This document shows, piece after piece, positions 46,930 through 64,000 of a DNA stretch of 64,000 nt. The stretch covers positions 53,990-117,989 of the IMG/VR virus record IMGVR_UViG_3300005711_000021. The stretch is one strand, 5' to 3'. Source of the DNA: a virus. Lineage: Duplodnaviria > Caudoviricetes. Every line of letters begins with the position of its first letter. Position 1 is the stretch's first letter. Below the pieces are notes generated by a model. The model saw only the letters and a list, made by a program, of their open reading frames with translations, was not told the DNA's origin and ran no database searches. Both the position numbers and the translations under genes were made by a program.

Positions 46930-47123
46930 TGAATTTAGTAGATAAATATTGTAATACGATACATCAAAAGCTATTAAAATATGAACTTATATCTAAAAAA
47001 TATTCAAAGTTAAAACTTGTTGATTTCACATTAGAACATAATAATACATATAATCAGTTTTCATGGACCGTAAATGGATATGTAAATACAAGTGATATTA
47101 GTAGTAGAACAATAACATATTAA
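46929..47123 (+). CDS. Small protein with MNLV N-terminus
   Basis: Coupled to the upstream stop (TAATG). Confidence 0.55.
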   Translation: MNLVDKYCNTIHQKLLKYELISKKYSKLKLVDFTLEHNNTYNQFSWTVNGYVNTSDISSRTITY

Positions 47124-47152
47124 AAGCTCCTTACAAAAAAGGAGCTTTATTT
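47122..47152. terminator. Bidirectional terminator between convergent blocks
   Basis: AAAGCTCCTT-acaaaa-AAGGAGCTTT with A/T tracts on both sides. Confidence 0.75.
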
Positions 47153-47188
47153 ATTATACTATATTAATATTTATATTATTAGGTCTTT

Positions 47189-49201
47189 CTATAATTGACC
47201 TTCATGTGTATCTAACTGTAATTGTAATTTAACAAGTAAACTGTTTAGGTTATCGAATTTACTTGTTAATTCTCCTATTTTATCTACTGGAACAGTAATT
47301 TCTACTGATGAAGGTTTAACTGCATCTCCAAAGGTAAATTTATTTGTAGCTTGGGTTAGAATTGGTGGCATTAGTTCTTTTGGAATATTAGTAACGATTG
47401 GCGTTTCAAGTTGAAAACGTATTGTGACATTATTGGTTGTCACCCACGACTTGAATCCATTTACATCTAAATCGTTTATGTCTGACCCAGTGAAGTTTAT
47501 TTGACTGGATGAATTATGTGCAGAAACACCATCAGAACCAGTTTTATATAAATCAGCATATGAAAGAGATTTTTTTACATTGCACATTACAGAAGCATTG
47601 TTAAGAGATTTTGCTACGTTTACGGTCGAAAGAGCAAATCTACACGAGTTAGATGAGCTAATTTGAAATTTAACAATGTTCAAAGCAATAGTTTCAGTAG
47701 GTGACATGCTTTTTGTATTCTGTGTCCAAACCCCACTACCATCTTCCTTAATCTCTAGTGTGTCATATACTCCGCCAATTCCGCCTAGTTCAATAACTTT
47801 CCCTTGTGCCTTATCTTCCTCTGTAGCATAAAATGAATATTTTAAGCCATTATTTGAGATGATTGCTTTAGTTGAGTTTAGTCCTTGTGGTATAAATTTG
47901 TCATATTTAGTTGTATTTGTATGGTCGCCTTCTATAATCCAATACCTATATACCAATTTTTCCCTATTAATGTTATGCACATAGTTTATATGTAATGGGG
48001 TATTGTCTACAATTGTTTTTGCTTGTTTAAATATCCCTATATCTCCAACTTTAGGCTTGATTGAAAAATATTGATAACCTCCAGCTCCACAATCAACCGT
48101 TATGTTATTTTCTATAATTTCCATGAATAATGTGTATGTCTTACCAATTATAAGGTTTGCACAAGATGCTGAAAATTTTCCATATGCTCCTGTTTGATTA
48201 ATTTTATAATCATTATCTATTGCTATGTTTGTATCAATTTTGCCTTTCGCATAATCAAATATCTCATTTTTAACCGTCTGCCCCTCAATCTTAGCACCTA
48301 ACACCCTTTGTTTCTCTATTCCATTTTCTACAAGAATATCTTCACCTTTGCTTGTAAACTCTTTACCGAGTTTACTTAATAATGCTGTATATCTTTCCTC
48401 TTCTGTATGCCCAGTGCGAGTTGTAATGTGGTCTGTATTAGAAGAAATAACGTAATCGTTTATCTTATTAATAGCTGGTGTATTATTAAGTACTGATAAG
48501 TTATGTTGGAATTCTTGATAAGATAATTCTCTATTATATATTTGCAAATCTTTTAATGTAGCATCTGCTCCTACGCTACCATCCCAAAACCCTAATGCCC
48601 ATAAATTAGCTATTGAAGGTTCTTTATCTGTGTAATTGATATAGCATTCTTGTTTTCCATTTAAAAAAGCATAAACATGATTTCCTAAAAGTCTAATTAT
48701 TATATTGTAATCAGTGCCAATTTGTATTTTTGTAGTACCTGTTGAAGATGAAGTTCTTCTTTGTAAATGCAATTGCCCTGTACTTGTAATACCAATTCTA
48801 AACTCCCCATTACTTTCTGATAGAAGCCATTTCGATGTAGATGGACTATTAAGTCTAACATTAAAAACTATCTCGTATTGCTGCGAAGGTTTATTGATTG
48901 CGAGTTTTGTTGAAGTTGTATATGCATACCTATCTGCATATACCAATCCCTCTTGTATAACTTTATTCTCAATGAAATTAACATTAACTGATTGACCATC
49001 TACAGTTACTTTATTATCAATACCGTCTAATTTAATCTTGTCTTTAAAACTCATAAAACCATCTTGTGAAGTAGTTGCATTAGAATGTTTATGATTATGT
49101 GAGGCAAAATCAGTTGAGTTTAAATTATTTAGTTTTTCAGCATTCTCTACTTCTAATGATGCCCATGTATTATTTAGCCAATACAATGCTTTTGGTTTCA
49201 T
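47189..49201 (-). CDS. Tail fibre / receptor-binding protein A (LamG-like domain plus one EGQTVKN module)
   Basis: ATTSQDGFMS..DKIKLDGI fibre motif; LQIYNRELS LamG-like motif; EGQTVKN...FQLETP module; ends LQLQLDTHEGQL. Confidence 0.75.
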   Translation of the reverse strand: MKPKALYWLNNTWASLEVENAEKLNNLNSTDFASHNHKHSNATTSQDGFMSFKDKIKLDGIDNKVTVDGQSVNVNFIENKVIQEGLVYADRYAYTTSTKLAINKPSQQYEIVFNVRLNSPSTSKWLLSESNGEFRIGITSTGQLHLQRRTSSSTGTTKIQIGTDYNIIIRLLGNHVYAFLNGKQECYINYTDKEPSIANLWALGFWDGSVGADATLKDLQIYNRELSYQEFQHNLSVLNNTPAINKINDYVISSNTDHITTRTGHTEEERYTALLSKLGKEFTSKGEDILVENGIEKQRVLGAKIEGQTVKNEIFDYAKGKIDTNIAIDNDYKINQTGAYGKFSASCANLIIGKTYTLFMEIIENNITVDCGAGGYQYFSIKPKVGDIGIFKQAKTIVDNTPLHINYVHNINREKLVYRYWIIEGDHTNTTKYDKFIPQGLNSTKAIISNNGLKYSFYATEEDKAQGKVIELGGIGGVYDTLEIKEDGSGVWTQNTKSMSPTETIALNIVKFQISSSNSCRFALSTVNVAKSLNNASVMCNVKKSLSYADLYKTGSDGVSAHNSSSQINFTGSDINDLDVNGFKSWVTTNNVTIRFQLETPIVTNIPKELMPPILTQATNKFTFGDAVKPSSVEITVPVDKIGELTSKFDNLNSLLVKLQLQLDTHEGQL
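48258..48310 (-). repeat. 53-bp perfect inverted repeat, left arm
   Basis: Exact reverse complement of 61419-61471. Confidence 0.95.
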
Positions 49202-49230
49202 AAAAAATACCTCCTATATTAATATATTTT

Positions 49231-49259
49231 AAAAAGATAGGCTATTAAAAGCCTATCTT
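49231..49259 (-). terminator. Rho-independent terminator (minus strand)
   Basis: AAGATAGGCT/AGCCTATCTT hairpin followed by T-tract on the minus strand. Confidence 0.65.
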
Positions 49260-49314
49260 AATTTCAGGATAAAATCTCTCCTTGTAGGATAAGATTCTAC
49301 TTATGCTATTACAT

Positions 49315-50172
49315 CTATATCCTTGATTTTACATAGTCAAGATATTTTTCTGGGCATTCTTCTAATGTTTTTCTTTTTGTTATTATCCATCTTACCCACA
49401 TATCAGCCATACAATTAGATGATTTATCTTTAGTAGAAATAACATTAAGAAGGTCAATTTCTTGTGCATTTAATTTATTATCTATTTCAAATAATGCATC
49501 TGCAATAAGTTCAATATCTGTTAAAGTATTTTCTTTTTCCTTTTTTAATTGTTCTGTGTTATCAATTGAAATATAAATATCAGATTCAAATGATTTTAAT
49601 TCGTTATCAACATAAGCTTTTAAAACAATATTACAATACTCTGTTTCCTTTGGAGTAAGTCTAGGTAGAGCTAATTTATCATAGTTACAAAAGACTTTAT
49701 TATCTTTAAGATATAAAGGATCATTTAATATATATTCTTCTATATTAAGCTTAAGTTGAATTCCTGTTTCAAGATCTATATATAGTTCTGGAGAAATACC
49801 TTCTTCGTTTGCTATATGATTATTAACCAATCTATGTGAATAATTTAAAGTAATATCTTTTTTAACTGGCTCAGAAAAAGTAACTTTTGATTCTTTTATA
49901 ACTTCATTTATAAATAAGTTATCTTCGCCATATAAAAATATTTTAATATCATTTCTATAAGTTAATGCTTTAGATGAAACATTATCTATATCATTCATCA
50001 CGGCCGATTTATAAAGTTCTTTATTTAAATTGTCTTCTGTGATAGGTAGAACAAATTGAATAAGAACATATAGAGATTTATTATTAATAGCTATATGATA
50101 TAACTTAGTATTTTCTGTAACGTTTTTTAATTCATTTGTTAAACATTCTTTTAAATAAAAACTTTGTTTCAT
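49315..50172 (-). CDS. Tail-fibre-associated protein with C-terminal CD1375-like chaperone motif
   Basis: MADMWVRWIITKRKTLEECPEKYLDYVK; start moved to ATG 50172 behind AAGGAGG. Confidence 0.55.
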   Translation of the reverse strand: MKQSFYLKECLTNELKNVTENTKLYHIAINNKSLYVLIQFVLPITEDNLNKELYKSAVMNDIDNVSSKALTYRNDIKIFLYGEDNLFINEVIKESKVTFSEPVKKDITLNYSHRLVNNHIANEEGISPELYIDLETGIQLKLNIEEYILNDPLYLKDNKVFCNYDKLALPRLTPKETEYCNIVLKAYVDNELKSFESDIYISIDNTEQLKKEKENTLTDIELIADALFEIDNKLNAQEIDLLNVISTKDKSSNCMADMWVRWIITKRKTLEECPEKYLDYVKSRI

Positions 50173-50188
50173 TATAAAAATACCCTCC

Positions 50189-51226
50189 TTATGGATAAAC
50201 AACTGTTTCGTTTACCCATACTTTATTCATTATTAAATAAGTATCTTCTCTAGGAATAAAAAAATCATCATCAAGGACCATCCATAAATATACATTTGTG
50301 AAATCAGAAGTGCAATCATACTGATAAGAATTATAATTATTTAATCCTGGCGTCCCAGTACTACCATAGATACCTGTTGCAATTCCCAATGATGGAAATG
50401 TGCTACTTGTTGATAAGCAAACTCTTCCAGTTTGTCCATATTTATCTGTAGAAAAACTTCCTCCATTGGGCAAAGTAGCATGTAATATATTTACTCTTAT
50501 GCTGTCACCTGCTTTTAAAGAAAAAGGATGTGTACTTCTGATAGCACATTTACCATAACCATTATAACCAGAAGCAATTTGACAGTAATCAGGACCAACA
50601 TAATTATGACCATATGTTGAGTTGTGTTGAATACTTGTCATAGCAATTTTAAAATTGACTGGTCCTCCATATTGAACAATATTAACCCATGAGTTATTTA
50701 TATTTGCATAAGTTGTTGATCCTACCCATGTGCCATTAATGTTTACATATTTACTTTTTGGAATTATCCATGCATCATTTACTTTAATGTGTTCTTTTCT
50801 TGTTTTCATTGGAAGTGAAACTTTAGTAATCCATCCTATATCTTCATTTCTATTTACAGAACCATCTTTTGCATAATAAAAATGTAAATAATATGTACCT
50901 GGAACTGTTATTTTATAAAAATATGTTAATTCAGATCTCTCTCCACTTATATTAGCCATATTCCCTTCGTTTCTTCCTGGCGGAGTGCTACTAGTAGAAA
51001 CATGCAAAGACATAAAATCGCAGCCGCCTTCTGAAGATACACCAATTGTAGCACTAACTGAACCGACTTCGGCTTCAAATTTTATATATCCACTTGTTTG
51101 TTGATTATGTGAAATTGGATTGCTTATTAATCTATTACTTACAAAAGTAAAGCCTCCTTGATTAAACACAATATCACTATGATATCCAGATGGAGGAGAT
51201 GTTAAATTTAATGTATAATTTGCCAT
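50189..51226 (-). CDS. Putative receptor-binding adhesin
   Basis: VSSEGGCD...ISGE...YAKDGS beta-sandwich, KVNDAW/NINGTW repeats, C-terminal beta domain. Confidence 0.55.
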   Translation of the reverse strand: MANYTLNLTSPPSGYHSDIVFNQGGFTFVSNRLISNPISHNQQTSGYIKFEAEVGSVSATIGVSSEGGCDFMSLHVSTSSTPPGRNEGNMANISGERSELTYFYKITVPGTYYLHFYYAKDGSVNRNEDIGWITKVSLPMKTRKEHIKVNDAWIIPKSKYVNINGTWVGSTTYANINNSWVNIVQYGGPVNFKIAMTSIQHNSTYGHNYVGPDYCQIASGYNGYGKCAIRSTHPFSLKAGDSIRVNILHATLPNGGSFSTDKYGQTGRVCLSTSSTFPSLGIATGIYGSTGTPGLNNYNSYQYDCTSDFTNVYLWMVLDDDFFIPREDTYLIMNKVWVNETVVYP

Positions 51227-51236
51227 ATGTCCCTCC

Positions 51237-52562
51237 TTAATATTTTATCCATATATCGTTATTTGCACCACCACTAGGACTAGCTGTAGAGATAGTAGTT
51301 CTTTTTACGTTACCATTAGAATTCCCAATTGTTAATGCATGACCAGATGATAAATTACCTGTAGAGTTTGAAATTACAAGTGGTCTTAATCCATTCCATA
51401 TACCAAATGGATCACCTGGGTTTGAAAACATAAAGTATGTATTACTACTATCATTTCTAATAAAGAAACTTTGATTGCCTTGAATCATTCTGAGGCCATT
51501 TGGATGATGTGTTATTAATTCTCCAGATGCTCTAAAATTACCGTCTGTTACTAAGTTACCATTTCCTTCAGAATATATTTTTTGCCCACGATCACCACTA
51601 TATGGTGCAAAATAAATTCCAGTATGTCCATTTGCTCCTTTTATACCTAAACAACCTGCAACGTTACAGTCACCCATATAAACATCATCACCAATAAAAT
51701 TCCATGTATTATTAGCAAGGTTTAAAGGACCAGTCATCAACCCCCCAGTTGCAGGCAATGCTCCAATCTCAGATGGAGTTGGCTTACTTCCAGTGCTATA
51801 TATTCTTCTCCATCCAGGTGAATATCCAGAGCCATTATTAACATATATAAATTCAGCATTAGTTGTGCCATGTGCAGTTGTAGTAGGCGTATGAATTCTA
51901 ATAGTGTAATTATTTTCATTACCTATAACTTCAACAGTGCATCCAGCAAGATGTATATTTCCACATCCCGTATCAGTAATATATCTATTATTAGCATAGG
52001 ACCAAGAACCTCTACATACCCAATATGGTTGTGAAAAAGCACCAAAACTTCTAAGTAAACTTATGAAATCTGAAGTTTTCATATCAGTTTCAGCATTTCC
52101 AAAGTTTACCCATGCTGAAAATGCTCTACCTGTACCTAGCTCAGCATGATTCCATGAAACATCAGCTGAACCATCAAATAATTTACCTGTAGCCCCAATT
52201 TTTATTGTTCTAGGTGTTTGTAATTTAGTAGCAGTTGTAGCATCTCCACCATTATCAATTGCTTTCCAATTCCCATAAGTATTATCTATTTTAGCTCTTT
52301 TAAAAATCTTACCACTTCTAATATCTGTTAATATCTGTGTTTGCCAACGTGTATTGGTAACTCCACTTGAAATAACTTGTAAAACAAAATCATTATCTCC
52401 ATTAGTATAACCATCAGGATATCCACTTGTACTATTGAAGAAATGATAATTTCCAAATCCTAAATCTTGATTTAAAGTTTGATTACGTGGCATTTCAATA
52501 AGTTTGTCTAATTTATTATTTTTTAAGTTCGTGATATCTTCAAGTACTATCGGTTGTGACAT
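51237..52562 (-). CDS. Tail fibre segment (N-tag family)
   Basis: ATTATKLQTPRTI..FDGSAD, PYWVCRGSWSYANN..TDTGCGNI, KPTPSEIGAL, FFIRND..WNGLRP, PSGGANNDIWIKY. Confidence 0.8.
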   Translation of the reverse strand: MSQPIVLEDITNLKNNKLDKLIEMPRNQTLNQDLGFGNYHFFNSTSGYPDGYTNGDNDFVLQVISSGVTNTRWQTQILTDIRSGKIFKRAKIDNTYGNWKAIDNGGDATTATKLQTPRTIKIGATGKLFDGSADVSWNHAELGTGRAFSAWVNFGNAETDMKTSDFISLLRSFGAFSQPYWVCRGSWSYANNRYITDTGCGNIHLAGCTVEVIGNENNYTIRIHTPTTTAHGTTNAEFIYVNNGSGYSPGWRRIYSTGSKPTPSEIGALPATGGLMTGPLNLANNTWNFIGDDVYMGDCNVAGCLGIKGANGHTGIYFAPYSGDRGQKIYSEGNGNLVTDGNFRASGELITHHPNGLRMIQGNQSFFIRNDSSNTYFMFSNPGDPFGIWNGLRPLVISNSTGNLSSGHALTIGNSNGNVKRTTISTASPSGGANNDIWIKY

Positions 52563-52592
52563 ATTATCGCGTCCTTTCTAATAATTAATAGT

Positions 52593-52697
52593 TTTATCTA
52601 GTTGTTATAAATTCTTTTAATAACTCTATAACCTTTTTTTGGATTTAATAACTATTCCATTTTTACCAACTACACCACATTCTTTACGCTTAGAAAA
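52593..52697 (-). pseudogene. Decayed remnant of the 3' end of the 54201-56210 fibre gene
   Basis: Aligns to 54201-54390 with deletions; the adjacent intergenic/RBS/start region is also duplicated. Confidence 0.8.
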
Positions 52698-52706
52698 TGG
52701 AATACC

Positions 52707-52994
52707 TTAAACATTAAGATTAAGGTATTCCATGATTAAATTAAGTTTGTCATTAATAGCTGTTAATAATTCCATATTTAATGAGTTATCTTTAGCAGTT
52801 ATTGCTTCAGTCACTTTTATTTCTTTAACCTCAATTGGTTCACTAAACTCTCTTGTTTCGGGATTGAATTTTAAATAGGATTGCGATTCTGCGAATTCAT
52901 CTTGTGATACTTCAACATATGATTCGTTTATAAGTTCACCAATCGCATGTTCTACGATATTAAAATTTTCGTCTAATAGTAAAAAATAGTTCAT
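52707..52994 (-). CDS. Tail fibre assembly chaperone-like protein
   Basis: Small acidic protein (LLDEN.NI...KFNPETREF plus coiled coil) directly downstream of a fibre gene. Confidence 0.55.
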   Translation of the reverse strand: MNYFLLLDENFNIVEHAIGELINESYVEVSQDEFAESQSYLKFNPETREFSEPIEVKEIKVTEAITAKDNSLNMELLTAINDKLNLIMEYLNLNV

Positions 52995-53011
52995 TTACAC
53001 GCACCCCCTTT

Positions 53012-54169
53012 TTATTTGTTCACATACGCTATCGGTATAATAGAACTTCCACTATGATCGTGGTTCGTAATACTAACCGTATTATCGAACGGTATCATAA
53101 TTTCGTGTTTGTACGACTGGTAACCTGACTCATCTGTAGACATAATATTTGCAAAGTCGGTAACCATTTTTCTCGAAACGATTGTCCTACCATCGACCAC
53201 AATGGTAATAGGGTCACGAGCGTACCAGAATGATACTCGTAATAACCCTCCTTTTGAGTTCGAGTAAGTAAACGTTTTGTTATTAGATAGAGTCTGTTCA
53301 CCAAGAACTACTACTGTTTTTCCCACATAATCACCTCCACACATTCGCTTAATTTGTTCTAAAGTATAGCCCCCTAATTTATTAGCATTTCCTACGGTTA
53401 TACCAGATGTATGTTTTACATAACAATTCTCATCATCTCCACCATTAAACGCATAAAAATATGGTGTGTCGTTTGAATATATTGGACGGTCATTGCGTGG
53501 ATGAAAATGCACTCCGTCTACCGAATGAGCATTATTTGCAAAATCTACTTTTGTAGTGTGTCCTTCAACATAAAGTTTAAACATACCATCTGAATCCCTA
53601 TTATGTTGGCACATTAGTGGGAAACCTGTCCCATGTGAATTACCATTACTAGCGAATGTTCCTAGTTGATATCCATGTAGTCCGTCTACCGTATCAGCAT
53701 TACCACCATCATGTGTTTTAGTCCACTGTGACCACGTTCCAGCATTAAAATTTCTCTCATATTTTATATGGGGACTATAATTCCAAGAATTATAAATTTG
53801 ATTAATCCTGTCACCATTCCCATATATAAGAACAGTTCCCCAACCATCACCTATAGGAACATTTGTCGTAGAAGAAGAACACATCCAACTTCCACCCTTT
53901 TTCCAATTGTTTAAATCATTACCGAAAAGATCATTTCCATAATGATTTATTTTCATAGTGGTTGTATTTAAATCATTTAGCATTATACCCACATCTGTAT
54001 CTTCATTGTTAACTTTAACATATAGGTTATTATTTACTCCCACTTTTTCAAAATGAGTAGTTCCAGTAACTTTTCCACCACTTAAAGGTAAATAATCATG
54101 AGTATGAGTTTTATTAGCCTTATTCTTTTGTAAATCTTTTAAATCAGTTAATACTTTCGGCTGTGCCAT
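53012..54169 (-). CDS. Tail fibre segment (N-tag family)
   Basis: HTHDYLPLSGG, knob-like WSQW domain, NADTVDGLH repeats; C-terminal domain shared with 56378-57145. Confidence 0.8.
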   Translation of the reverse strand: MAQPKVLTDLKDLQKNKANKTHTHDYLPLSGGKVTGTTHFEKVGVNNNLYVKVNNEDTDVGIMLNDLNTTTMKINHYGNDLFGNDLNNWKKGGSWMCSSSTTNVPIGDGWGTVLIYGNGDRINQIYNSWNYSPHIKYERNFNAGTWSQWTKTHDGGNADTVDGLHGYQLGTFASNGNSHGTGFPLMCQHNRDSDGMFKLYVEGHTTKVDFANNAHSVDGVHFHPRNDRPIYSNDTPYFYAFNGGDDENCYVKHTSGITVGNANKLGGYTLEQIKRMCGGDYVGKTVVVLGEQTLSNNKTFTYSNSKGGLLRVSFWYARDPITIVVDGRTIVSRKMVTDFANIMSTDESGYQSYKHEIMIPFDNTVSITNHDHSGSSIIPIAYVNK

Positions 54170-54200
54170 ATTATCATGTCCTTTCTAGTAATTAATAGTT

Positions 54201-56210
54201 TTATCTAAAAACAACTTGAATAATGTTGTCAGAGATTCTTTTAATAACTCTATAACCCTTTTTGGATTTAATAGCTATTCCATTTTTACCAACTGAACAA
54301 TATCCATTAATTTCACAAGTGCCGTCATCTCTTACTTTGATTTGACCAAGCATACCAACTACGCCCCATTCTTTACGTTCAGAACGTGGAAGATATTCCA
54401 TATTTGGATCATAGTCAGGATTTAACTTGATATGTTTTTCAGTTACAGTTTTAGTCTTTGTTTCTATTTCACCAGTTTCTTCATTTAAAACTAATTCTTC
54501 TTTTTCTACTTCGACATCTTCATATTGTAGTCTATCGAATTCGTCTCTTATGTACATATCATTCCATGAATCTTCACAAGCATTACCAATAATAGATTGA
54601 TTTCCAGAAATAATACCTACAATGTAATCATCATCTGGATTAGCTATTCTAATCTTATCTCCATCTAATGTAACAAATAAACCTATTCTATCTTCATTAT
54701 CAGGATTTCCATCTTTCCATTCAAAGTATTCAGCATAGTCAGCACCTGTAGAGTTAAAAGCAGATAAACCATAAGATTTACCATCAAATGTTACTCTAAA
54801 AGCATTAGAACGAGATGAATCATTTGAACCATTTCCTATAACAAAAGCGTTGTTTGTTGCAGAAAATGCAGTTACGTTACCTTCACTCTTTTTGTTATAT
54901 GTTCCAAGAACATGCAGCATGCTGGTTTCGGCAATCGTGTGATGTCCTTCAGCATGAGAGTAGCTTCCAGCTGCTTTAGTATACCATCCTTCTGAATGAG
55001 AACCATTACCAGAAGCAGTAGTATGATACCCTTCTGCATGAGCATGAATAGCAATTGCTCTACTAGCATATCCTTCAGCATGCGAAGACATTTGAGTAGC
55101 ATAAGTGTCATTGCCTTCGGCGTGTGAATAAGGACCAGAAGCATAAGTATCATATCCCTCAGCATGTGAAAAATCACCTTTTGCTTGACATGAATATCCT
55201 TCTGTATGTGAACAATCGCCCTCAGCTTTTGTTTTATACCCTTCAGCATGAGAATAGTCACCAGTTGCAATATTTTCATATCCTTCAGCGTGTGAATTTT
55301 CTCCAATTGCATGTACACTATATCCTTCTGCATGAGAAAACATACCAGACGCGACATTAGCACAGCCTTCTGCATGAGAACACATACCAGATGCGATATT
55401 AGCACCTCCTTCTGCATGAGAATAATCACCTTTCGCTGCATTCATGGCTCCCTCTGCATGAGAAGCATCTCCAAAAGCGGCGGTATTATGTCCTTCGCAA
55501 TGACTTGCTAGACCCCAAGATATACTAACTTTTCTATCTTCATCAAGTTCTTTCCAGTAGTCGTAAGCTCTATCAGCGTCATCGCCAGATAAAGCGGCAT
55601 TATTCATATCTGCTAAATTAGAAGAAATCCCCTCAGCATGAGAAGATTCACCAGATGCTGTTGTTTTTTCACCCTCTGTATGAGATTTTTCTCCAAGAGC
55701 AACAGTATCATATCCTTCGGCATGTGAAGATTCACCTTTTGCTCTGCTATTAAAACCTTCAGCATGTGAGTATTTACCATCAGCTTTACTGCCAAATCCT
55801 TCAGCGTGTGAAGCTATTCCACTAGCAACAGCATTTTGTCCTTCTACATGAGAAGTTTCTCCAAGAGCTTTATTATTGCCTCCTTCAGCATGTGACTTTG
55901 CACCAGAAGCAACATTGGTTCCATAATCATTAAAAACTTCACCTAACGTTGAATTAGGATATATTTTTCCAACTAATCCAGTAATCATTGAAGCAGGATG
56001 TGTATTAGGATGTGTATAAACAGTATCTGTAAATTTAGCATTTGCAGGCACATTACTTAAAACTGTTTTACCATTAACTGTGTTAGCATTTCCGCCGTTA
56101 GCAGGAAGAGAAGATGGTCTTCCAGTAAGATTATTCCAAGTATGATCTGCAACATTTAACTTATTCTTTTGTAAATCTTTTAAGTCAGTTAATAGTTTTG
56201 GTTGTATCAT
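54201..56210 (-). CDS. Adhesin-like fibre with SHAEG repeats and C-terminal Peptidase_G2-like autocleaving chaperone
   Basis: About 20 14-aa A.G..SHAEG repeats (YadA-head-like); GADYAEYFEW.DGNP..EDR.G...PRSERKEW.VVGMLG..RDDGTC. Confidence 0.85.
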   Translation of the reverse strand: MIQPKLLTDLKDLQKNKLNVADHTWNNLTGRPSSLPANGGNANTVNGKTVLSNVPANAKFTDTVYTHPNTHPASMITGLVGKIYPNSTLGEVFNDYGTNVASGAKSHAEGGNNKALGETSHVEGQNAVASGIASHAEGFGSKADGKYSHAEGFNSRAKGESSHAEGYDTVALGEKSHTEGEKTTASGESSHAEGISSNLADMNNAALSGDDADRAYDYWKELDEDRKVSISWGLASHCEGHNTAAFGDASHAEGAMNAAKGDYSHAEGGANIASGMCSHAEGCANVASGMFSHAEGYSVHAIGENSHAEGYENIATGDYSHAEGYKTKAEGDCSHTEGYSCQAKGDFSHAEGYDTYASGPYSHAEGNDTYATQMSSHAEGYASRAIAIHAHAEGYHTTASGNGSHSEGWYTKAAGSYSHAEGHHTIAETSMLHVLGTYNKKSEGNVTAFSATNNAFVIGNGSNDSSRSNAFRVTFDGKSYGLSAFNSTGADYAEYFEWKDGNPDNEDRIGLFVTLDGDKIRIANPDDDYIVGIISGNQSIIGNACEDSWNDMYIRDEFDRLQYEDVEVEKEELVLNEETGEIETKTKTVTEKHIKLNPDYDPNMEYLPRSERKEWGVVGMLGQIKVRDDGTCEINGYCSVGKNGIAIKSKKGYRVIKRISDNIIQVVFR
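54940..55900 (-). repeat. SHAEG coding repeats (42-nt period)
   Basis: Recurrent CCTTCxGCATGxGA on the + strand; boundaries approximate. Confidence 0.85.
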
Positions 56211-56377
56211 GTACATATCTCCTTTTAAAGTCAAAATTATGTCAAATTAAATAATTATGTTTGTATAGCTGTTAATGTTTTTAATAGCTATAAGTAACTT
56301 TGGCCGTAATATGAGGCATCTAATGTATTTTATATTTATTATTTTTTTATCTATATATGTAAAATTGTTTAAGTATA

Positions 56378-57145
56378 TTATTTATTAACATATGCTGTTA
56401 TAGCAGCATCTGTATTAGATGCTTGGATAAACACACTAGAACTAAATGGAATAATCATTTCATAGATTTGATTTGTTCTATCTTGAAGATGTGCACATTG
56501 TCCTACACGTATCTTAGCCATTTTTGAAACACCATCAATAGTTATTCTTTCTATCATAGAATTTCCACCAGCTAAAAGAGTTAGTTTTAACAATCCACCT
56601 TTTGGATTAGAATAACTCCATCCATTTGCACTACTAAATGAAACATCTCTAAAAAAGACAATATCTTTTCCTTCAAAATCTCCTTTTGGACTATTTGCTA
56701 TTTTACTTTCTAAATCTGCAGTTTTATTTTGTAAACCTGATAAACTATTTTCTAGGCCAGTCGTTTTACTTTTTAAACTTGATAAGTTATTCTCTAGTCC
56801 TGTTGTCTTACTTTGTAGACCTGATAAATTGTTTTCTAAACTTGATGTTTTACTTTGTAACCCAGATAGATTATTTTCTAAACTTGATGTTTTATTTTGT
56901 AATCCTGTTAAGTTGTTTTGTAAACCAGATATTTGTGAAATATCATGTGTTGCAGGATGAACATACACAGTATCTGTGAATTTAGCATTAGCAGGTACAT
57001 TACTTAAAACTTGTTTATTATTAGTAGTATCAGAATTACCTCCATTTGCAGGAAGTGCAGCAGGTTTTCCTGCTAAATTAGCCCATGTATTTTCGGTCTT
57101 GTCTAGCTTATTTCTCATATCTGAAATTATTCTTGGTTCTGGCAT
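56378..57145 (-). CDS. Short coiled-coil tail fibre (N-tag family)
   Basis: LPANGGN..VPANAKFTDTVY.HP.TH, LENNLSGLQSKT repeats, KGGLL...IPF..AYVNK head. Confidence 0.75.
   Translation of the reverse strand: MPEPRIISDMRNKLDKTENTWANLAGKPAALPANGGNSDTTNNKQVLSNVPANAKFTDTVYVHPATHDISQISGLQNNLTGLQNKTSSLENNLSGLQSKTSSLENNLSGLQSKTTGLENNLSSLKSKTTGLENSLSGLQNKTADLESKIANSPKGDFEGKDIVFFRDVSFSSANGWSYSNPKGGLLKLTLLAGGNSMIERITIDGVSKMAKIRVGQCAHLQDRTNQIYEMIIPFSSSVFIQASNTDAAITAYVNK
56708..56917 (-). repeat. About five 42-bp tandem repeats encoding a coiled coil
   Basis: LENNLSGLQSKT(S/T)(S/G) units. Confidence 0.85.
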
Positions 57146-57170
57146 AATACCATCCCTCTCTTATTTATAT

Positions 57171-58172
57171 CTATAACTTATCTTCATAAGCATCTAGTCG
57201 TAACCGTAAATCATTTAGCTTAGTTTCTAAATCACTTATAGCTTGTGTATCTTCCTTTAAATATGTATAGTCGATAAATTCTCCACTTTCTAATGGTTTA
57301 TTTAGTGTTATTTTATTTCCTTCTACTTTATAGTCTAAGTCTTTAAATAATCTTGCTCCTAACATATATACTTTTAGTTCTTTATCAACTGCATCTTCAA
57401 CTATGTTAAAACTATCTACATTTGAAGTAGCATTATATCTAACATGTACTTCTTCAACAGGCATATCCATATTTAACTTGATGACAACATAATCTATATG
57501 TTCACCTGCTTCTAATGGAAGTGCTAGACGAATATCGCCACCTACTATTTCATACTCTTTATCTTCAAATAAACGAATTCCTAGTTGATAAACAACTACT
57601 TTCTTTTCATAAATGTCTTCTTTGATTTCAATCTCTGAAGTTGGTTTTGTAGCAACAAAACGATAGCGAGTACCTGTATAAGGTGCAAAACCTACATCGA
57701 AAGATCCTCCATTACCACCGCCAGCTTTTGCTAAATCATATACTTCATTAATAGCTTCAACCAAAGTTGTTTTATTTGATGTTTGAAGATCTGCTAAACT
57801 TCCTATGCGTGGTTTATTAGATAATTCTTCATAGTTATAACTAGAATGTGTAATTTTAACAAAGATTGATTCTCCTTTTTTTAAAGTAAAAGTAAGAGAA
57901 ACTGTGTTTTTAGACAATGTAAAGTTTTCTACTTCATTAAGTCGTAATCCTTCAAAGTAAAACTGTGCTGTATCTGTTGTTGGATTATATATATCAGTAG
58001 GTATTACAAAACTAGTTACATCATTTTCTGCAGTAAATTGAAAACCACCATGACCAGTCATAAAGACATTCTTATAAAGATTACCAAACGCGTCGGCGTG
58101 AAAACCATCTACGGTATCTGCGTCAACTGTGTCAAATGTTGAACCTGTCCATATTAAATCTCTTATTGACAT
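57171..58172 (-). CDS. Proximal fibre/adaptor protein with three repeat domains
   Basis: DADTVDGFHA, IGSLADLQTSNKTTLVEAINEV, three VY.LG.RL..D.Y domains; ends LRLRLDAYEDKL. Confidence 0.7.
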   Translation of the reverse strand: MSIRDLIWTGSTFDTVDADTVDGFHADAFGNLYKNVFMTGHGGFQFTAENDVTSFVIPTDIYNPTTDTAQFYFEGLRLNEVENFTLSKNTVSLTFTLKKGESIFVKITHSSYNYEELSNKPRIGSLADLQTSNKTTLVEAINEVYDLAKAGGGNGGSFDVGFAPYTGTRYRFVATKPTSEIEIKEDIYEKKVVVYQLGIRLFEDKEYEIVGGDIRLALPLEAGEHIDYVVIKLNMDMPVEEVHVRYNATSNVDSFNIVEDAVDKELKVYMLGARLFKDLDYKVEGNKITLNKPLESGEFIDYTYLKEDTQAISDLETKLNDLRLRLDAYEDKL

Positions 58173-58376
58173 TTTAACTTGCCACCTTTCTATTATTTAT
58201 TTTATACATAACTATATTACTAAATAATAATCTTTAATTAACAATCGCTCTTGCACTGAGTGGTTTAAAAAAATAAAGAAGATAGTAATAAAAAAATAAA
58301 AACCATGGTAATAAAAAAATATAGCTAAATTTTTCTCTTTATGGAGAAAAAAAATAATAAAGAAAGGAAATATAAA
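58173..58376. promoter_or_regulatory. Divergent promoter region of the fibre locus
   Basis: Intergenic gap between divergent operons; GTAATAAAAAAATA twice on + (58285, 58308) and GTAATA on - (58215-58220). Confidence 0.5.
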
Positions 58377-60560
58377 ATGTTTATTGACAAAAAAAGAGAA
58401 GATTTTATCTATAAGGACTTGATGACTTCCATCCAAGAAGAGTTTGATCATTTAAATGATAAAATTAATAATATCGAAGGAAGTGAATGTGAAGACATTA
58501 AAGAACAAGTAAACACTAATGCAGAAGAGATTACTACATTAAAAGATAGCATGACCACATTAGAAAACAAAGTAGATGTTGATAGTGTATCAAAAGCTAT
58601 CTCAGATGCAATAAGTGGTGCAGATGGAAAAATAGGTTTGCCAATAACCACAAATGATGTGGTTAATAGCTTTAATAAAACTCAAGATGAAATTAATAAA
58701 TCATTTTATAAAGGTTTTAGTGCAGAATTTGTAAGTAATGGCGAAGACATTGTTATAAATGATGTAATTGGTGACGAAGTGTTCGGTGCTAGATTAGAGG
58801 GGCAAACTGTAAAGAATTATGCCACAGTTCATATCGATGGAAAAAACCCATCGAAATATACACCTTTATCATTTGATATAGAATTAAATAAAACATACAC
58901 CATTGTATTTGAACAACTAAGTGGAGCATCTGATTATGGTTTTATTTGTTTAACAAAAGGATTCACGCGATTAACTACACCTTACAATGCCAAAATTCAA
59001 ATATCTAATAAACAGCCAAACGGTGTTAGGTTTGGTGTTGTGCAAACAAATTATGCATCAGAAATTCCTACAAATGGTGAATTTGGAATAGAAATAAGTG
59101 GGATACCAGCTTTAGGTACAATATCAGATAAAATTATAATACTCGAAGGTGACTGTACAAATAAAATTGATTACTACACATTTGATTCTGTTGGCTTATC
59201 TTCAACTAAAGCAACTATAACAAACAACGGAGAAAAATATTCTTTCTACAATCCTATCATAGAGGGGAAAACAGTTGTTATGAGAACACCTAAAGGTACT
59301 AATAATTGGGTAGAGATTAGTGAGTTTGAAGAAAGAGATGTTGAACTCTATGATTATAAACTAAGCAGTCCTATTAATGGCTTAAACGGTACTTCTAGAT
59401 TATGTGATTATATAGATAGATCTAGAAAGATAAAAGTTATTAATACGAAAGAAATTGTATTAGATGGTAGTCAGCCTATAAGTAATGCTGGTGTTATGTC
59501 AAATGTTTCTATTTTTAAAGTAACCGTTCCAGATATGCTAAACGAAAGAGGGGTTGGTATAATTGCGGCTACGATTAAATCAAGAGAAATACATAATAAT
59601 CTAGAGGGTATTTATACTCAGTCAGGTTATATATATATTGGATTAAAACAAGATAAAGTAAAACCTAATATCAATTCATATTTACAAACCAATCCAATTA
59701 CAGTACGTTATCAACTAGCAACACCAATCGAAGTACCACTCACAGATGAAGAATTTGAAGAGTATGAAAATCACAAAAAGGTAATTGAACTTGATGGAAT
59801 AAAACAAACAGATTCAATATCTAAATCAAACAGCCTTAGCATTTTAGAAGATGGTAGTTGTGCTTATACGGAAAATATAATCACACTAAACGCTGAAAAA
59901 TTAAAAGCTTATTTAGGAAGATATTATTTCAATAAGTTCATTAATGAAGATAAAATACAGTATAGATGTTTTATTGACGACTATCCTAGAGCCGTAAAAG
60001 AAACTGTATTTCAAGGTATTAGTACAAAAACTAATTTAGGGTTTGTAGACACAATCCAAGATAAGATGCACGGGTATGACTCCATTGGTAATAGATGTTC
60101 TGTAGTAAGAACCGCACCATCTATTATAATCATATTAACAGAGGAAAGTCTTCAACCAAAAGATAGATTAAATCCAACAAGAGAAGATTTTATAAATTAT
60201 TTCAATAGAAATAGTGATTTAGAAATAAAAGTTATTGTTGAGCCAAAAACTACGATTATAGACAAATCTATTACGCCACCAGTTATACCAACTCAACAAA
60301 ACAATGTTTTCTCATTCGGTGAAGAAGTTAAATCATCAAAAGCTATGGTAAAGGTTGCTACTGCAAAAACAAGTGATTTAAGTAAATTCAATGAGATCGA
60401 GTTACAAGTAAAAACAAATACTGCATCTATAAATTCACTTAGATCAACTGTTACAAATTATGGCACAAGACTTACAGCCTTAGAAACTAAACTAAATAAC
60501 CTAAATAACTTAGTTGTTAGTTTGCAATTACAATTAGATGCCCATGAAGGTCAATTATAG
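58377..60560 (+). CDS. Tail fibre / receptor-binding protein B (EGQTVKN module with nested insert)
   Basis: Coiled coil, LEGQTVKN...GLSSTKATITNNG...VRYQLATP; ends LQLQLDAHEGQL; start moved to ATG 58377 behind AAAGGA. Confidence 0.75.
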   Translation: MFIDKKREDFIYKDLMTSIQEEFDHLNDKINNIEGSECEDIKEQVNTNAEEITTLKDSMTTLENKVDVDSVSKAISDAISGADGKIGLPITTNDVVNSFNKTQDEINKSFYKGFSAEFVSNGEDIVINDVIGDEVFGARLEGQTVKNYATVHIDGKNPSKYTPLSFDIELNKTYTIVFEQLSGASDYGFICLTKGFTRLTTPYNAKIQISNKQPNGVRFGVVQTNYASEIPTNGEFGIEISGIPALGTISDKIIILEGDCTNKIDYYTFDSVGLSSTKATITNNGEKYSFYNPIIEGKTVVMRTPKGTNNWVEISEFEERDVELYDYKLSSPINGLNGTSRLCDYIDRSRKIKVINTKEIVLDGSQPISNAGVMSNVSIFKVTVPDMLNERGVGIIAATIKSREIHNNLEGIYTQSGYIYIGLKQDKVKPNINSYLQTNPITVRYQLATPIEVPLTDEEFEEYENHKKVIELDGIKQTDSISKSNSLSILEDGSCAYTENIITLNAEKLKAYLGRYYFNKFINEDKIQYRCFIDDYPRAVKETVFQGISTKTNLGFVDTIQDKMHGYDSIGNRCSVVRTAPSIIIILTEESLQPKDRLNPTREDFINYFNRNSDLEIKVIVEPKTTIIDKSITPPVIPTQQNNVFSFGEEVKSSKAMVKVATAKTSDLSKFNEIELQVKTNTASINSLRSTVTNYGTRLTALETKLNNLNNLVVSLQLQLDAHEGQL

Positions 60561-60576
60561 AAAGGTGAGATTAAAT

Positions 60577-61044
60577 ATGAAAGAATTCTATTTAGCTATT
60601 AAAACAAAAGTTGAAACAGGAAACTATGTTTTAGACGATATGCACGAAGAGCTACAATTAGCTTATGAAAAAGGTAGAATTACTTTGGTTCAATATGAAG
60701 AATTAATAGAATTAGCTAATGATTCAATTAACTATGATTATGTAAAAGATAAATATCCTAGCCGATATGATTTGGACCAAGATAATAATTTAACCGAGCA
60801 TGATGAAAGTATTACTGAATTATTTGAGATGATACTAAAATTTACAGCTAATACAATAGAGATTGAAAATGAAGAAACTAAATTAAATAGTTCTATTGTT
60901 AATAGCTATGCTAGATTAATAATTAAAGGTATAAAAGATTTATCAAGCGTACCAAATGTTATTGTAAAAGAAGTTGCTAATAAACTGATTGAACAAGATA
61001 AAACTGATTTGGTTGAAGAAAAAGACGACGATTTAGAACATTAA
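60577..61044 (+). CDS. XkdX-like / CD1375-like tail fibre chaperone
   Basis: YEKGRITLVQYEELI and SYARLIIKGIKDLSSVP..IVKEV motifs. Confidence 0.65.
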   Translation: MKEFYLAIKTKVETGNYVLDDMHEELQLAYEKGRITLVQYEELIELANDSINYDYVKDKYPSRYDLDQDNNLTEHDESITELFEMILKFTANTIEIENEETKLNSSIVNSYARLIIKGIKDLSSVPNVIVKEVANKLIEQDKTDLVEEKDDDLEH

Positions 61045-61112
61045 TATTATAGTAAAACACATGTACTTAATAATTGAACATATATTTTTAGAAAAAGGAA
61101 GGAGCTAAAAAA

Positions 61113-64000
61113 ATGTCATTAAATAATGTGCATTTAACAAAACAAGAAAAAACAGAGTTACTGAACAAAGTAAAGTTAAATGGTGCAGTAACAAATGTTA
61201 ACTTTATAAGTAAAAACAATGCAGTGAAAACAATAGAAGCTACGGATAATGAAGGGCGTAAAACAAGTTTTTCATTATCTACAGACATGGACACAGACCA
61301 CATTACAACTCGTACTGGTCATACAGAAGAAGAAAGATATACAGCATTATTAAGCCAGTTTGGTAAAAAGTATATAAGTAATGGCAGTGATATTACTGTA
61401 GAAAATGCAATTGAAAATCAAAGGGTGTTAGGTGCTAAGATTGAGGGGCAGACGGTTAAAAATGAGATATTAGGATACGGTAGAACAGACGATTTATATT
61501 GGTCTAATGCCACAGCAGGAAAAATATCATATTCTAACACATATTATTCTCTTGTTAATTCAAAATATCTTGTTTTGCGTGGTGCTAATTCTGGAGTAGT
61601 ATCATCAAGTATTGATTTATCTAAAGATTATACTTTTATATTAGAAATTAAAGAAAATCCTTTAGAGAACTTTATGTTAACCACTCATTCTGGAGAAAAT
61701 GTAATGATTGAAAAAGGGTTTACAGGTGTAAAGAAATTTACTGGAAAAATAAAAAGTGCTTCTCAGACTTTGATGAATGCTAGTAACACAATAACAGCTA
61801 GTGAAAAACCTTTTGTGTTTAGATTTATGCTTATAGAAACAAAAGATGTGGCAAATGTAAATTCATTTTTTACAGATAATATTAAATCAACCCAAGCTAT
61901 CATTACAAACAACGGTGTAAAACATTCAATTTATGCAAATGCTGAAGATAAAGCTAATGGAAAAGTGATTGAATTGAGCGGAATTGGCGATGTTAGAAAC
62001 ACTTTTGAGATTAAAGAAGACGGTAGTGCTGTTTATACTAAAAGACTAGTAGAAAGGGTATTATCGGAAACCGATGTATGGTTGAAAGAAAGAACCGAAA
62101 ATGATGTTTCTATGTGTTTTTGTCACCCAAAATTGGCAGGAGTAAAACCTTCAACAAAGAATATTCTATCCACACATTTTGTAACTAAGGCTGTTTACGG
62201 GCAAGGTGTTTTAACAGAAGGAATTGGTATGAGTGGTGATTATTTTTATGTAAGAATATTTAAAAATAAGTTAAAGACCTTAGATGTAGATAGTTTTAAG
62301 GAGTGGTTATCTTCAAACAAACTATGTATTGTTTATGAATTGGATAAACCAGTAGTAACACATATTCCAAAAGAATTAGTGCCAGCGATTCTAACAAAAA
62401 CTACAAATGAATTTAGCTTTAGTGATGCAGTAAAAGCTACATCAGCAGAAATTACAGTGCCAGTAGATAATAAAGTAAAACTAGATGGTCAAGCAACAAG
62501 TGTTAATTTTATTAGCACAGACGGTGCAATAAAAACTATCGAAACTGTAGATAACGAAGGGCATAAAATAAGTTCTTCATTCGCTACTGATACAAACCAC
62601 ATTACAGACCGAGTAGGAAGAACACAAGATGTTATAAACCATGCGTTCTATAAGCACGCTTGCAAGGAGTTTGCAAGTAGTGGTCAAGATATTGTAATTG
62701 ATGATGGATTAAATGGGTATATGTTAAGTGGTAAGTTAGAGGGGCAGACAGTTAAGAATGTACTACAACCAAGTGATTATAATAATACACATCTATATCC
62801 ACAAGAAAAATTTGCAGATGACTACTATATTGTTGCAAATACAATGTTCCAAAATTTCAAAATACTTGATATAAAATTTGAAATCGGCAAAGAATATACA
62901 CTTTCTATGGAGATAGTAGAAAATACCCTCAAGAAAGACGCATGGGGTGGGCATATGGCAACCCTTTTTAATTTTAATATTAAAGCTGGTCAAGTTGGAG
63001 TATTTCATGTAAAAAAAACAATTAAGACGCTAGATGATATTACAAGGATATTCTACTTTACTATGGCGGAAGGCTATGACAATAAAGTAGAAAAACTAAA
63101 ATACAGATTTTGGGTAACAGAAAACGGTCATTCAGATACATTCTTCACAGGTCTATCTTCAACCCAAGCAGTCATCACAAATAATGGTGAAAAATATTCT
63201 TTCTATGCGAGTGAAGAAGATAAGGCACAAGGGAAAGTTATCGAGTTAAATGGAATAGATGCTAATGGATGGAATGATTCTGCAACACCACATGATAGAT
63301 TAGAGATAAATGAAGATGGTAGTGGTATTTATACGCAAAATATTTTTAGGCTTAATGTTAAAGGTACAGAAACGTATCTAAGTCCTCTCAAAAGCAAGAG
63401 TGGAACTCATGTGATATACAGATTAAATATTACGCATCTTGTTAAGAATGTAAATACAGCTGCCATTGTTGATAAATATCCGTTCAAGCCTTGGATTAAT
63501 GGATATGCAGGAAAGATAGATGAGACTTATGTGGGGTATGCAGATGCTAAAGTAATATGTATTTCACTACCAGTAGAAATTGCACCTACCGTAGATGCTT
63601 TAAAGGCATATCTTCAAGAAACAGGCGGTTTTGAAATGGTAGGTCAATTGAAAGAACCTATTACAACTCATATACCAAAGGAAGTGATGCTACAAATCAT
63701 ACCAACCTATGAAAAAAATACTTTCACATTCGGAGAAGGTGTGAAGCCTAGTAAGGCAACTGTTGCTTTACCTACATCAGACAATGTGAAAAAAGAGTAT
63801 GACGTAACTTTGTTAAATAATTATACTCAAAATTCAATCAGATTTGCTCCTTCTGTAAGTTTAATGAAAGATGACAAAACGGTTAAAATTAGAATGGATT
63901 TGATTGCACCAAACACAGGAGTGAGTATAAACGTGTTTGCACTTCCTACAGAATTAAGACCTAAGACAAATACTAGGATTCCAGTATTTGTGAATCGTGT
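61113..64000 (+). CDS. Tail fibre / receptor-binding protein C with two tandem EGQTVKN modules (3'-truncated, absent from ORF track)
   Basis: AAGGAG RBS; MSLNNVHLTKQEK...IEGQTVKNEI...LEGQTVKNV...NVFALPTELRP; appears open to the window end. Confidence 0.8.
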   Translation, partial: MSLNNVHLTKQEKTELLNKVKLNGAVTNVNFISKNNAVKTIEATDNEGRKTSFSLSTDMDTDHITTRTGHTEEERYTALLSQFGKKYISNGSDITVENAIENQRVLGAKIEGQTVKNEILGYGRTDDLYWSNATAGKISYSNTYYSLVNSKYLVLRGANSGVVSSSIDLSKDYTFILEIKENPLENFMLTTHSGENVMIEKGFTGVKKFTGKIKSASQTLMNASNTITASEKPFVFRFMLIETKDVANVNSFFTDNIKSTQAIITNNGVKHSIYANAEDKANGKVIELSGIGDVRNTFEIKEDGSAVYTKRLVERVLSETDVWLKERTENDVSMCFCHPKLAGVKPSTKNILSTHFVTKAVYGQGVLTEGIGMSGDYFYVRIFKNKLKTLDVDSFKEWLSSNKLCIVYELDKPVVTHIPKELVPAILTKTTNEFSFSDAVKATSAEITVPVDNKVKLDGQATSVNFISTDGAIKTIETVDNEGHKISSSFATDTNHITDRVGRTQDVINHAFYKHACKEFASSGQDIVIDDGLNGYMLSGKLEGQTVKNVLQPSDYNNTHLYPQEKFADDYYIVANTMFQNFKILDIKFEIGKEYTLSMEIVENTLKKDAWGGHMATLFNFNIKAGQVGVFHVKKTIKTLDDITRIFYFTMAEGYDNKVEKLKYRFWVTENGHSDTFFTGLSSTQAVITNNGEKYSFYASEEDKAQGKVIELNGIDANGWNDSATPHDRLEINEDGSGIYTQNIFRLNVKGTETYLSPLKSKSGTHVIYRLNITHLVKNVNTAAIVDKYPFKPWINGYAGKIDETYVGYADAKVICISLPVEIAPTVDALKAYLQETGGFEMVGQLKEPITTHIPKEVMLQIIPTYEKNTFTFGEGVKPSKATVALPTSDNVKKEYDVTLLNNYTQNSIRFAPSVSLMKDDKTVKIRMDLIAPNTGVSINVFALPTELRPKTNTRIPVFVNR
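61419..61471 (+). repeat. 53-bp perfect inverted repeat, right arm
   Basis: CAAAGGGTGTTAGGTGCTAAGATTGAGGGGCAGACGGTTAAAAATGAGATATT. Confidence 0.95.

Follow-up and report, generated by a model that had tools for sequence, protein, structure and literature searches.

Do stretches of inverted, in-frame identity between fibre genes on opposite strands mark a switch of host range, or can an ordinary family of modular proteins leave the same trace? The question is raised by a receptor-binding locus of a tailed phage (Duplodnaviria; Caudoviricetes) represented by IMG/VR record IMGVR_UViG_3300005711_000021. The window analysed here is the final 64 kb (positions 53,990 to 117,989) of this 117,989-bp viral contig, which has a CheckV completeness of about 50%; the GC content of the window is about 29%. 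Toward its right end, an array of minus-strand fibre genes spans 58172 down to 47189 and finishes with gene A, and a divergent plus-strand operon, consisting of gene B, a small open reading frame (ORF) and gene C, runs past the contig end. An earlier reading of the sequence, referred to here as the original prediction, had proposed that a multi-site inversion or gene-conversion system shuffles host-range domains between these genes, in the manner of a shufflon or of the fibre switches Gin of Mu, Cin of P1 and Min of p15B. The analysis described below points to a different answer. Probably, A, B and C are ordinary modular receptor-binding paralogues that carry one short A/C exchange tract and have recombined at their linkers over evolutionary time.

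Alignment of the three proteins bore out the proposal that they share one module made of conserved linkers and variable domains. Residues 250-670 of A, 55-480 and 485-887 of C, and 100-739 of B align as a single module, with 38.6% (C 55-480), 33% (C 485-887) and 25% (B 100-739) identity to A. The module consists of three conserved linkers, L1, L2 and L3, split by two variable domains (VD1 and VD2), which are only 9-32% identical between paralogues. Gene A thus reads, in order, N-terminal anchor, predicted ConA/Laminin_G_3 lectin domain, L1-VD1-L2-VD2-L3 and C-terminal coiled-coil tag, and gene C contains its two modules (aa 55-480 and aa 485-887) in tandem. The linker consensus sequences are ...TDHITTRTGHTEEERY...GAKIEGQTVKNE for L1, ...STKAIISNNG.KYSFYA.EEDKAQGKVIEL...EIKEDGSG for L2, and ...IPKEL...FTFGDAVKPS...VPVD for L3.

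The gene and block coordinates of the original prediction all hold. Positions 48258-48310 in A match the reverse complement of 61419-61471 in C at 53 of 53 nucleotides; 48375-48436 and 61293-61354 agree at 59 of 62, encode the same peptide and differ by three mismatches that are all synonymous; 47793-47818 and 63216-63241 agree at 26 of 26; and the A/B C-terminal block, 47185-47269 against 60480-60564, agrees at 69 of 85 nucleotides and 16 of 20 residues. In a repeat search, the 53-bp and 59/62 blocks merge into one 179-nt inverted repeat of 87% identity. As had been claimed, the identity of the 53-bp block stops where VD1 begins, at the end of ...GQTVKNEI, and A and C read the block in the same codon phase, so that an in-frame reciprocal swap by a crossover there is geometrically possible. 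When compared with one another, the four blocks share at most 7 nt; they are four different sequences with no common core, and dyad symmetry is missing from all of them except for a 12-nt self-complementary match in the C-terminal block.

A further comparison concerned synonymous codons. For each pair of modules, we counted the same codons among aligned identical residues and compared this number with the expectation from the phage's own codon usage. Over whole modules the counts were at or below expectation in five of six pairs, which means that synonymous sites are saturated and the modules are therefore old; the pair of A and C module 1 lay above it (103 vs 92.7). Its excess is found in L1 (A 253-318 vs C 58-123), where 41 of 48 same-residue codons are identical and 28 are expected. 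Both parts of this linker contribute (19/23 vs 13.2 expected, P 0.007; 22/25 vs 15.0, P 0.0016), and, for a fixed peptide, agreement of all 17 codons in the 53-bp perfect run has a probability of about 5e-5. Among the conserved linkers this is the sole pair with excess codon identity: A L2 stands at expectation against C module 2, and all other linker pairs are saturated. Nei-Gojobori estimates of synonymous divergence (dS) between A and C module 1 are 0.21 for L1b, 0.51 for the whole of L1, 0.49 for L3, 1.55 for L2 and above 1 for the variable domains.

For the remaining blocks, conserved peptide and codon bias are all that is needed, since their codon identity is near expectation: 16 of 25 codons are identical in the context of the 26-bp block (14.8 expected) and 13 of 16 at the A/B C-terminus (10.1 expected, P 0.09), neither of which is significant. 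Because the excess of synonymous identity is limited to L1 of A and C module 1, it indicates one short, comparatively recent exchange tract and no maintained set of sites. Judged by its codons, this linker probably underwent intragenomic exchange or gene conversion. The original proposal thus survives in part: gene conversion has support for this one tract only, and multi-site inversion is not supported.

The linkers are, furthermore, a property of a whole protein family. Gene A has 66 homologues in a collection of 5.8 billion proteins, none of them above 43% identity, and the best 63 of the 66 have E values from 1e-17 down to 1e-91. Homologues at 30-42% identity lie in siphophage or prophage contigs, and many homologues carry an N-terminal BppU_N domain, which A, B and C lack. 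On inspection of four contigs (L004, L006, L007 and L022), the homologue proved to be encoded once, on the tail-gene strand, as the final large gene of the tail, with a cell-wall hydrolase (lysis) gene shortly downstream in L004 and L006. A family survey of IMG/VR (five loci, two of them partial and at contig ends) and of JGI metagenomes (one locus) gave one tail-strand match each, and the IMG/VR loci L010-L012 likewise have one match each on the oriented strand. By its 66 homologues and the match of A to the tail-fibre family phrog_6782, the module is homologous to distal-tail or baseplate genes. The alignment consensus of the family reproduces L1, L2 and L3, with linker peptides nearly as in A; in the three external loci tested, the identity of linker DNA to A is 61-80%, and codons agree as often as expected. 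Since the linkers are family-wide and present in single-copy genes of unrelated phages, the shufflon reading is weakened. Other searches were negative: neither a search for near-identical DNA nor a protein search with C had a match in the phage record collection, and peptide patterns retrieved no relatives of A or of the polymerase from IMG/VR.

When every family member was ranked for each segment by its identity to A, different parts of the module had different nearest relatives. For L1 the nearest is C (77%), with externals next at 73-76%; for L2 it is an external at 79%, with C at 64% and rank 40; and for L3 it is again an external, with C at rank 13 (identities in Table 1). For the variable domains, no family member exceeds 29%. 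As externals are closer than C in L2 and L3, A and C are not recent duplicates. They are better described, on the strength of these comparisons, as separate lineages of a mosaic family whose linkers appear to be under strong protein-level selection. Both conserved motifs flanking hypervariable segments and discordant relatedness between neighbouring segments are present in the module.

A related phage illustrates how fibres are changed in this lineage. L008, the closest phage found, is 77-82% identical over replication genes and has at the position of A a 289-aa gene that shares just the first 61 residues of A, followed by different fibres. The anchor of A is 55% identical to the first minus-strand fibre of L008, 49% identical to L009, and 64% identical to P0064, the Peptidase_G2 fibre that another large phage encodes on its 250-kb contig. 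This sharing of the anchor by L008 and P0064 implies that the lineage changes fibres by replacement behind a constant anchor. Comparison of locus order, which the original prediction had named as informative, therefore revealed fibre replacement and no inversion in L008, with only the 61-aa anchor kept. In a sequence search of the Protein Data Bank, just the short FtbO anchor motif was matched.

The contig was also searched for enzymes that could drive a switch. Neither a serine invertase (Resolvase, PF00239) nor a tyrosine recombinase (Phage_integrase, PF00589) was matched at E<=1 in the 118-kb contig, which is about half of the genome and holds all DNA left of and inside the locus, with the right flank beyond C unseen. 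The absence of a recombinase, originally noted for the window, thus extends to the whole contig. RecA, RecT and Sak4-type recombinases are likewise missing from the contig. A diversity-generating retroelement was rejected as a candidate: a reverse transcriptase (RVT_1) had no match at E<=1 in the contig, and the locus has no near-identical direct repeat pair with adenine-specific differences of the template/variable-repeat (TR/VR) kind, in a genome that is incomplete.

A, B and C are each complete with their own start (C being open at the contig end), they lie in two divergent operons, and there are no promoterless cassettes. Inversion would therefore only re-pair N- and C-terminal parts, and every domain would be expressed either way. 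With no common site, no cassettes and no recombinase in 118 kb, the likeness to Gin, Cin, Min or a shufflon is not sustained, and a programmed multi-site inversion system at this locus is not supported. In public assemblies we looked for a 30-mer from the 53-bp block (exact match; viral and metagenome contigs), for fragments of a chimeric A/C junction (short-protein search) and for another contig carrying A (protein collection). None was found, which is weak evidence against inversion.

Structure prediction gave a first view of what the module may do. AlphaFold2 (AF2) models of A are of moderate quality (mean pLDDT 67-68). The Laminin_G_3 match at aa 106-230 scores 23 bits, under the cut-off of 27.6; AF2 is confident in this region, which matches ConA-like lectin folds, and the N-terminal domain of A is accordingly modelled as a ConA-like lectin. 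The best matches of VD1 (VIA-align) are carbohydrate-binding modules of the CBM4/16/22 type (Z 6-6.8), the Tuc2009 BppA tripod (Z 6.0) and a phi812 baseplate chain (Z 5.9). These values, which are within the common-fold range, are suggestive of a CBM-like beta-sandwich. Among predicted viral structures, tail proteins of siphoviruses, of Herelleviridae and of the BppU type gave matches. As monomers the linkers are modelled poorly, as would fit intertwined trimeric segments.

We propose that A, B and C are paralogous modular tail-fibre or baseplate receptor-binding proteins of a large, low-GC phage, each of which would hold at least one copy of a module common among phages of Gram-positive-type hosts. 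L1, L2 and L3 would be kept constant by protein-level selection, probably as a shared trimeric scaffold, and would bracket two hypervariable beta-sandwich domains that probably bind glycans. With A on the opposite strand, the conserved linker codons would look like in-frame inverted repeats of B and C, and most of the inverted identity would amount to conserved peptide plus strong AT codon bias. L1 of A and C module 1 (about 180 nt) would represent one comparatively recent homologous exchange or gene-conversion tract. Homologous recombination at the linkers, whether the partner is a paralogue or another phage or prophage, would be the source of new domain combinations, in place of a dedicated recombinase that flips DNA each generation. 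Several points weigh against this proposal. The 53-bp perfect run is long enough for homologous recombination; a recombinase may lie just beyond C or elsewhere, the contig being about 50% of the genome; and a minority inverted isomer may exist alongside the one assembled arrangement. In addition, the monomer models behind the structural role of the linkers are of low confidence, and a nucleotide-level constraint at the module junctions, described below, is not predicted by it.

The alternative that survives best, although we consider it unlikely, is unprogrammed, homology-driven inversion at the 53-bp repeat and, less so, at 20-26-bp runs, by which about 13 kb would flip; a minority of genomes would then encode chimeric A/C fibres, giving a mixed phage population with no dedicated recombinase involved. 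The perfect repeat with its shared codon phase would allow this; the flipped segment would keep both operons and the divergent spacer intact, the phage encodes RecJ-like and PD-(D/E)XK nucleases, and the excess synonymous identity in L1 shows that the two copies interacted. A precedent exists in cyanophages, where isomers bounded by inverted repeats are reported to occur without a dedicated recombinase (bioRxiv 10.64898/2026.02.14.705889). The contig lacks the RecA, RecT or Sak4-type recombinase that would speak for it, however, public assemblies hold neither a chimeric junction fragment nor a second copy of the block, and L008 shows replacement instead. Expressed domains would be unchanged by the exchange, so that no selective benefit is evident. 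Moreover, 53 bp is near the lower limit of efficient homologous recombination.

A bolder reading, to which we give only a slim chance, holds that the linker repeats with their G-rich core are joints at which anchors and binding domains are re-paired between opposed fibre genes within the population. It would call for an invertase in the missing half of the genome or for efficient homology-driven inversion at the 53-bp repeat. If true, this would be fibre shuffling of a new layout, in which parts are traded between complete genes instead of by cassette switching.

The G-rich core itself is the only motif common to the junctions, a 9-11-nt in-frame stretch encoding E-G-Q/K-T. All five E-G(Q/K)T junctions, at 48286 (-) and at 58797, 59262, 61443 and 62739 (+), use GAG GGG, codons that account for 12.6% (GAG) and 4.8% (GGG) of their codon families here, and the core GAGGGG(C/A)ARAC is found nowhere else in the contig; its copies stand in both direct and inverted orientation. 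GGG also encodes the junction glycine in four of six single-copy homologues of unrelated phages. These comparisons suggest that GAG GGG reflects a codon-level constraint across the family, perhaps through pausing or a Shine-Dalgarno (SD)-like element ahead of the variable domain. Two other roles were rejected: an internal SD sequence for a downstream start, as the ATG is not conserved across copies, and a part of a -1 slippery heptamer, as the heptamer is not conserved either. In IMG/VR, the junction DNA pattern had seven matches, one of which is a family member.

Such codon-level selection, for example on a rare-codon or SD-like pause site, forms part of a further alternative, in which there was no recombination and all blocks reflect this selection together with purifying selection on the peptide. 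In its favour are linkers conserved across the family and a GGG codon kept even between unrelated phages, and it fully explains the 26-bp and C-terminal blocks. We nevertheless regard it as very improbable, given the codon excess in L1 of A and C module 1 and the 17-codon run within it: the same linker stands at expectation against C module 2, B or external phages, and selection would be needed on one pair only. Finally, site-specific multi-inversion of the shufflon, Min or Rin type, by a recombinase in the unsequenced half acting on GAGGGG(C/A)A(R)AC, is hardly credible: the core does sit, in rare codons, at exactly five module junctions, with the copy in A pointing opposite to those in B and C, the genome is incomplete with a contig that breaks inside C, and 11 bp can be enough for a Rin-type site (PMC6109161), but the GGG-CAR-ACN-GTN core stands in four of six single-copy homologues with no inverted partner and is thus a family-wide codon feature, its direct-orientation copies in B and C would yield deletions, the three other listed blocks are unrelated sequences, the layout of a constant N-terminus with promoterless cassettes is missing, and 118 kb, including all DNA left of and inside the locus, are free of recombinase genes.

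The reading of A, B and C as modular paralogues can be placed among known systems. In T4-type phages, recombination at conserved motifs flanking hypervariable adhesin segments swaps specificity (PMC3157838, citing Tetart 1998). The T-even distal tail-fibre and gp38 mosaics resemble the present locus in that short conserved motifs flank hypervariable binding segments, relationships are mosaic and discordant from segment to segment, and exchange needs no dedicated recombinase, since homologous recombination acts at the conserved motifs or close to them. They differ in protein family and host type; here, linkers of about 40-65 aa surround whole beta-sandwich domains, several paralogues with tandem modules occur in one genome, and no recombinants were seen. 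Similarly, the BppU/BppA-type baseplate and receptor-binding proteins, with CBM insertions, of siphophages that infect Gram-positive bacteria (TP901-1 and Tuc2009; PMC4742702) are comparable, since homologues of the A module are BppU_N-anchored and stand at the distal end of the tail module, and since VD1 matches both CBM folds and the BppA tripod chain. Unlike them, A, B and C have no BppU_N, the 60-aa anchor of A is shared with fibres of related large phages, and there are three paralogues with tandem modules instead of one gene.

The resemblance to Gin of Mu, Cin of P1, Min of p15B and Rin of bifidobacterial prophages lies in inverted in-frame repeats inside opposite-strand receptor-binding genes and in unrelated variable parts beyond the repeat. 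Serine invertases of the Gin kind use one common site of about 26 bp with partial dyad symmetry, inverted at each point of exchange, and R64/Rin-type shufflons use short asymmetric repeats (sfx 19 bp, rix 11 bp) between their cassettes. In the known switches, one constant N-terminal part is read into alternative silent cassettes beside an invertase (PMC6109161). Here, in contrast, the contig has no invertase gene, no single repeated crossover site and no alternative arrangements that were seen, and instead of a constant N-terminal part with promoterless C-termini, all variable domains are expressed in either orientation. Lastly, the branched TSP1-4 multi-receptor-binding-protein (RBP) complexes of Ackermannviridae (PMC11414711) also draw on numerous fibre or spike genes at a single locus. 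There, too, the anchors at the N-terminus are conserved and the distal parts can be exchanged, and RBPs are newly gained without disturbing the complex; the protein folds are unrelated.

The features of the locus are collected in Table 1.

Table 1. Genes, module parts and other features of the receptor-binding locus (window coordinates)
Feature	Position	Strand	Basis and remarks
Hairpin terminator	47123..47148		separates A from convergent gene 46678-46929
Gene A	47189..49201	-	670 aa; ORF, translation, Laminin_G_3 aa 106-230, phrog_6782 tail fibre, module alignment
A N-terminal anchor, aa 1-61	49019..49201	-	FtbO match at aa 29-62; homology to relatives' fibres
A linker L1, aa 253-318	48248..48445	-	contains 53-bp and 59/62 blocks
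A variable domain 1, aa 319-439	47885..48247	-	predicted CBM-like beta-sandwich (AF2); <=25% identity to any homologue
A linker L2, aa 440-495	47717..47884	-	contains 26-bp block 47793-47818
A variable domain 2, aa 496-597	47411..47716	-	pLDDT largely about 65-90 in the two AF2 models; no homologue above 29% identity
A linker L3, aa 598-640	47282..47410	-	externals 81-88%, C 67%
A C-terminal coiled-coil tag, ...LQLQLDTHEGQL + stop	47185..47281	-	like C-termini of B and of the 57171-58172 gene
Spacer between divergent fibre operons	58173..58340		ORF map and GC-skew sign change
Gene B	58341..60560	+	739 aa; one module with nested insertion of roughly 170 aa; C-terminal tag like that of A
Small ORF after B	60538..61044	+	ORF map
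Gene C	61113..63998	+	at least 962 aa, open at contig end; two full tandem modules, then a further domain
C module 1 linker L1, aa 58-123	61284..61481	+	partner of A L1 blocks
26-bp block in C module 2 L2	63216..63241	+	codons for EDKAQGKV

Two starts deserve comment. In gene B, a second ATG at 58377, which the original prediction had used, has a better ribosome-binding site and is the probable start; in the small ORF, translation probably begins at 60577, behind AAAGGTGAG. The product of this ORF is possibly a fibre accessory or chaperone protein. The insertion in B (59244-59760, +) opens with a second, degenerate junction motif, IIEGKTVV, and appears from its sequence to be a module nested within a module. 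The coiled-coil tag L.L.LD.(H/Y)E..L-stop ends three otherwise unlike fibre genes, at 57171-58172 (-), 47189-47281 (-) and 60480-60560 (+), and may be a trimerisation or docking element.

The remaining genes of the minus-strand array include a gp34-type trimerisation domain and a Peptidase_G2 intramolecular-chaperone domain, which makes the locus a large fibre cluster. Three of them (51237-52562, 53012-54169 and 54201-56234, -) have similar 5' ends and upstream spacers (71-82% nucleotide identity; shared regions 52512-52600, 54119-54207 and 56160-56225), with N-termini M.QPKVLTDLKDLQKNK..., that look like common N-terminal adaptor tags. Periodic repeats of 42 nt (14 copies, 54942-55896, -) in the Peptidase_G2 fibre gene and of 21 nt (56703-56928, -) in a 255-aa coiled-coil gene indicate repetitive shaft segments. 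Both this contig, in C, and the 89-kb relative L008, in a 1270-aa gene, end in long fibre genes, which suggests that fibre modules of a repetitive or heterogeneous kind are where assemblies break. A within-contig repeat was rejected as the cause of the end inside C, the last stretch of about 250 nt having no repeat in the contig.

The plus strand also carries replication genes, which code for a primase, RecJ-like and PD-(D/E)XK nucleases, a sigma factor, a DnaB-like helicase and, split in two pieces (42864-44261 and 44586-46652), DnaE (Pol III alpha). The insert in the DnaE gene, roughly 389 nt long (44243-44631), is precisely missing from the intact 1125-1136-aa genes of L008 (1136 aa) and L009; an intron would fit. 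Rfam models at gathering threshold had no match in 42000-64000.

Taken together, these results describe a clear but ordinary case of phage receptor-binding proteins assembled from interchangeable parts. The N-terminal anchors joined to this one module family are of two kinds or more (BppU_N in small siphophages, the 60-aa anchor in large phages), and the module is found as one, nested and tandem copies. If inversion isomers turned up in reads, the locus would stand for a novel layout of fibre variation. That fibre paralogues share in-frame inverted identity is by itself no evidence of a switch, and a codon-level test tells a conserved scaffold from real exchange tracts. The linkers, finally, are obvious joints for natural or engineered domain swaps.

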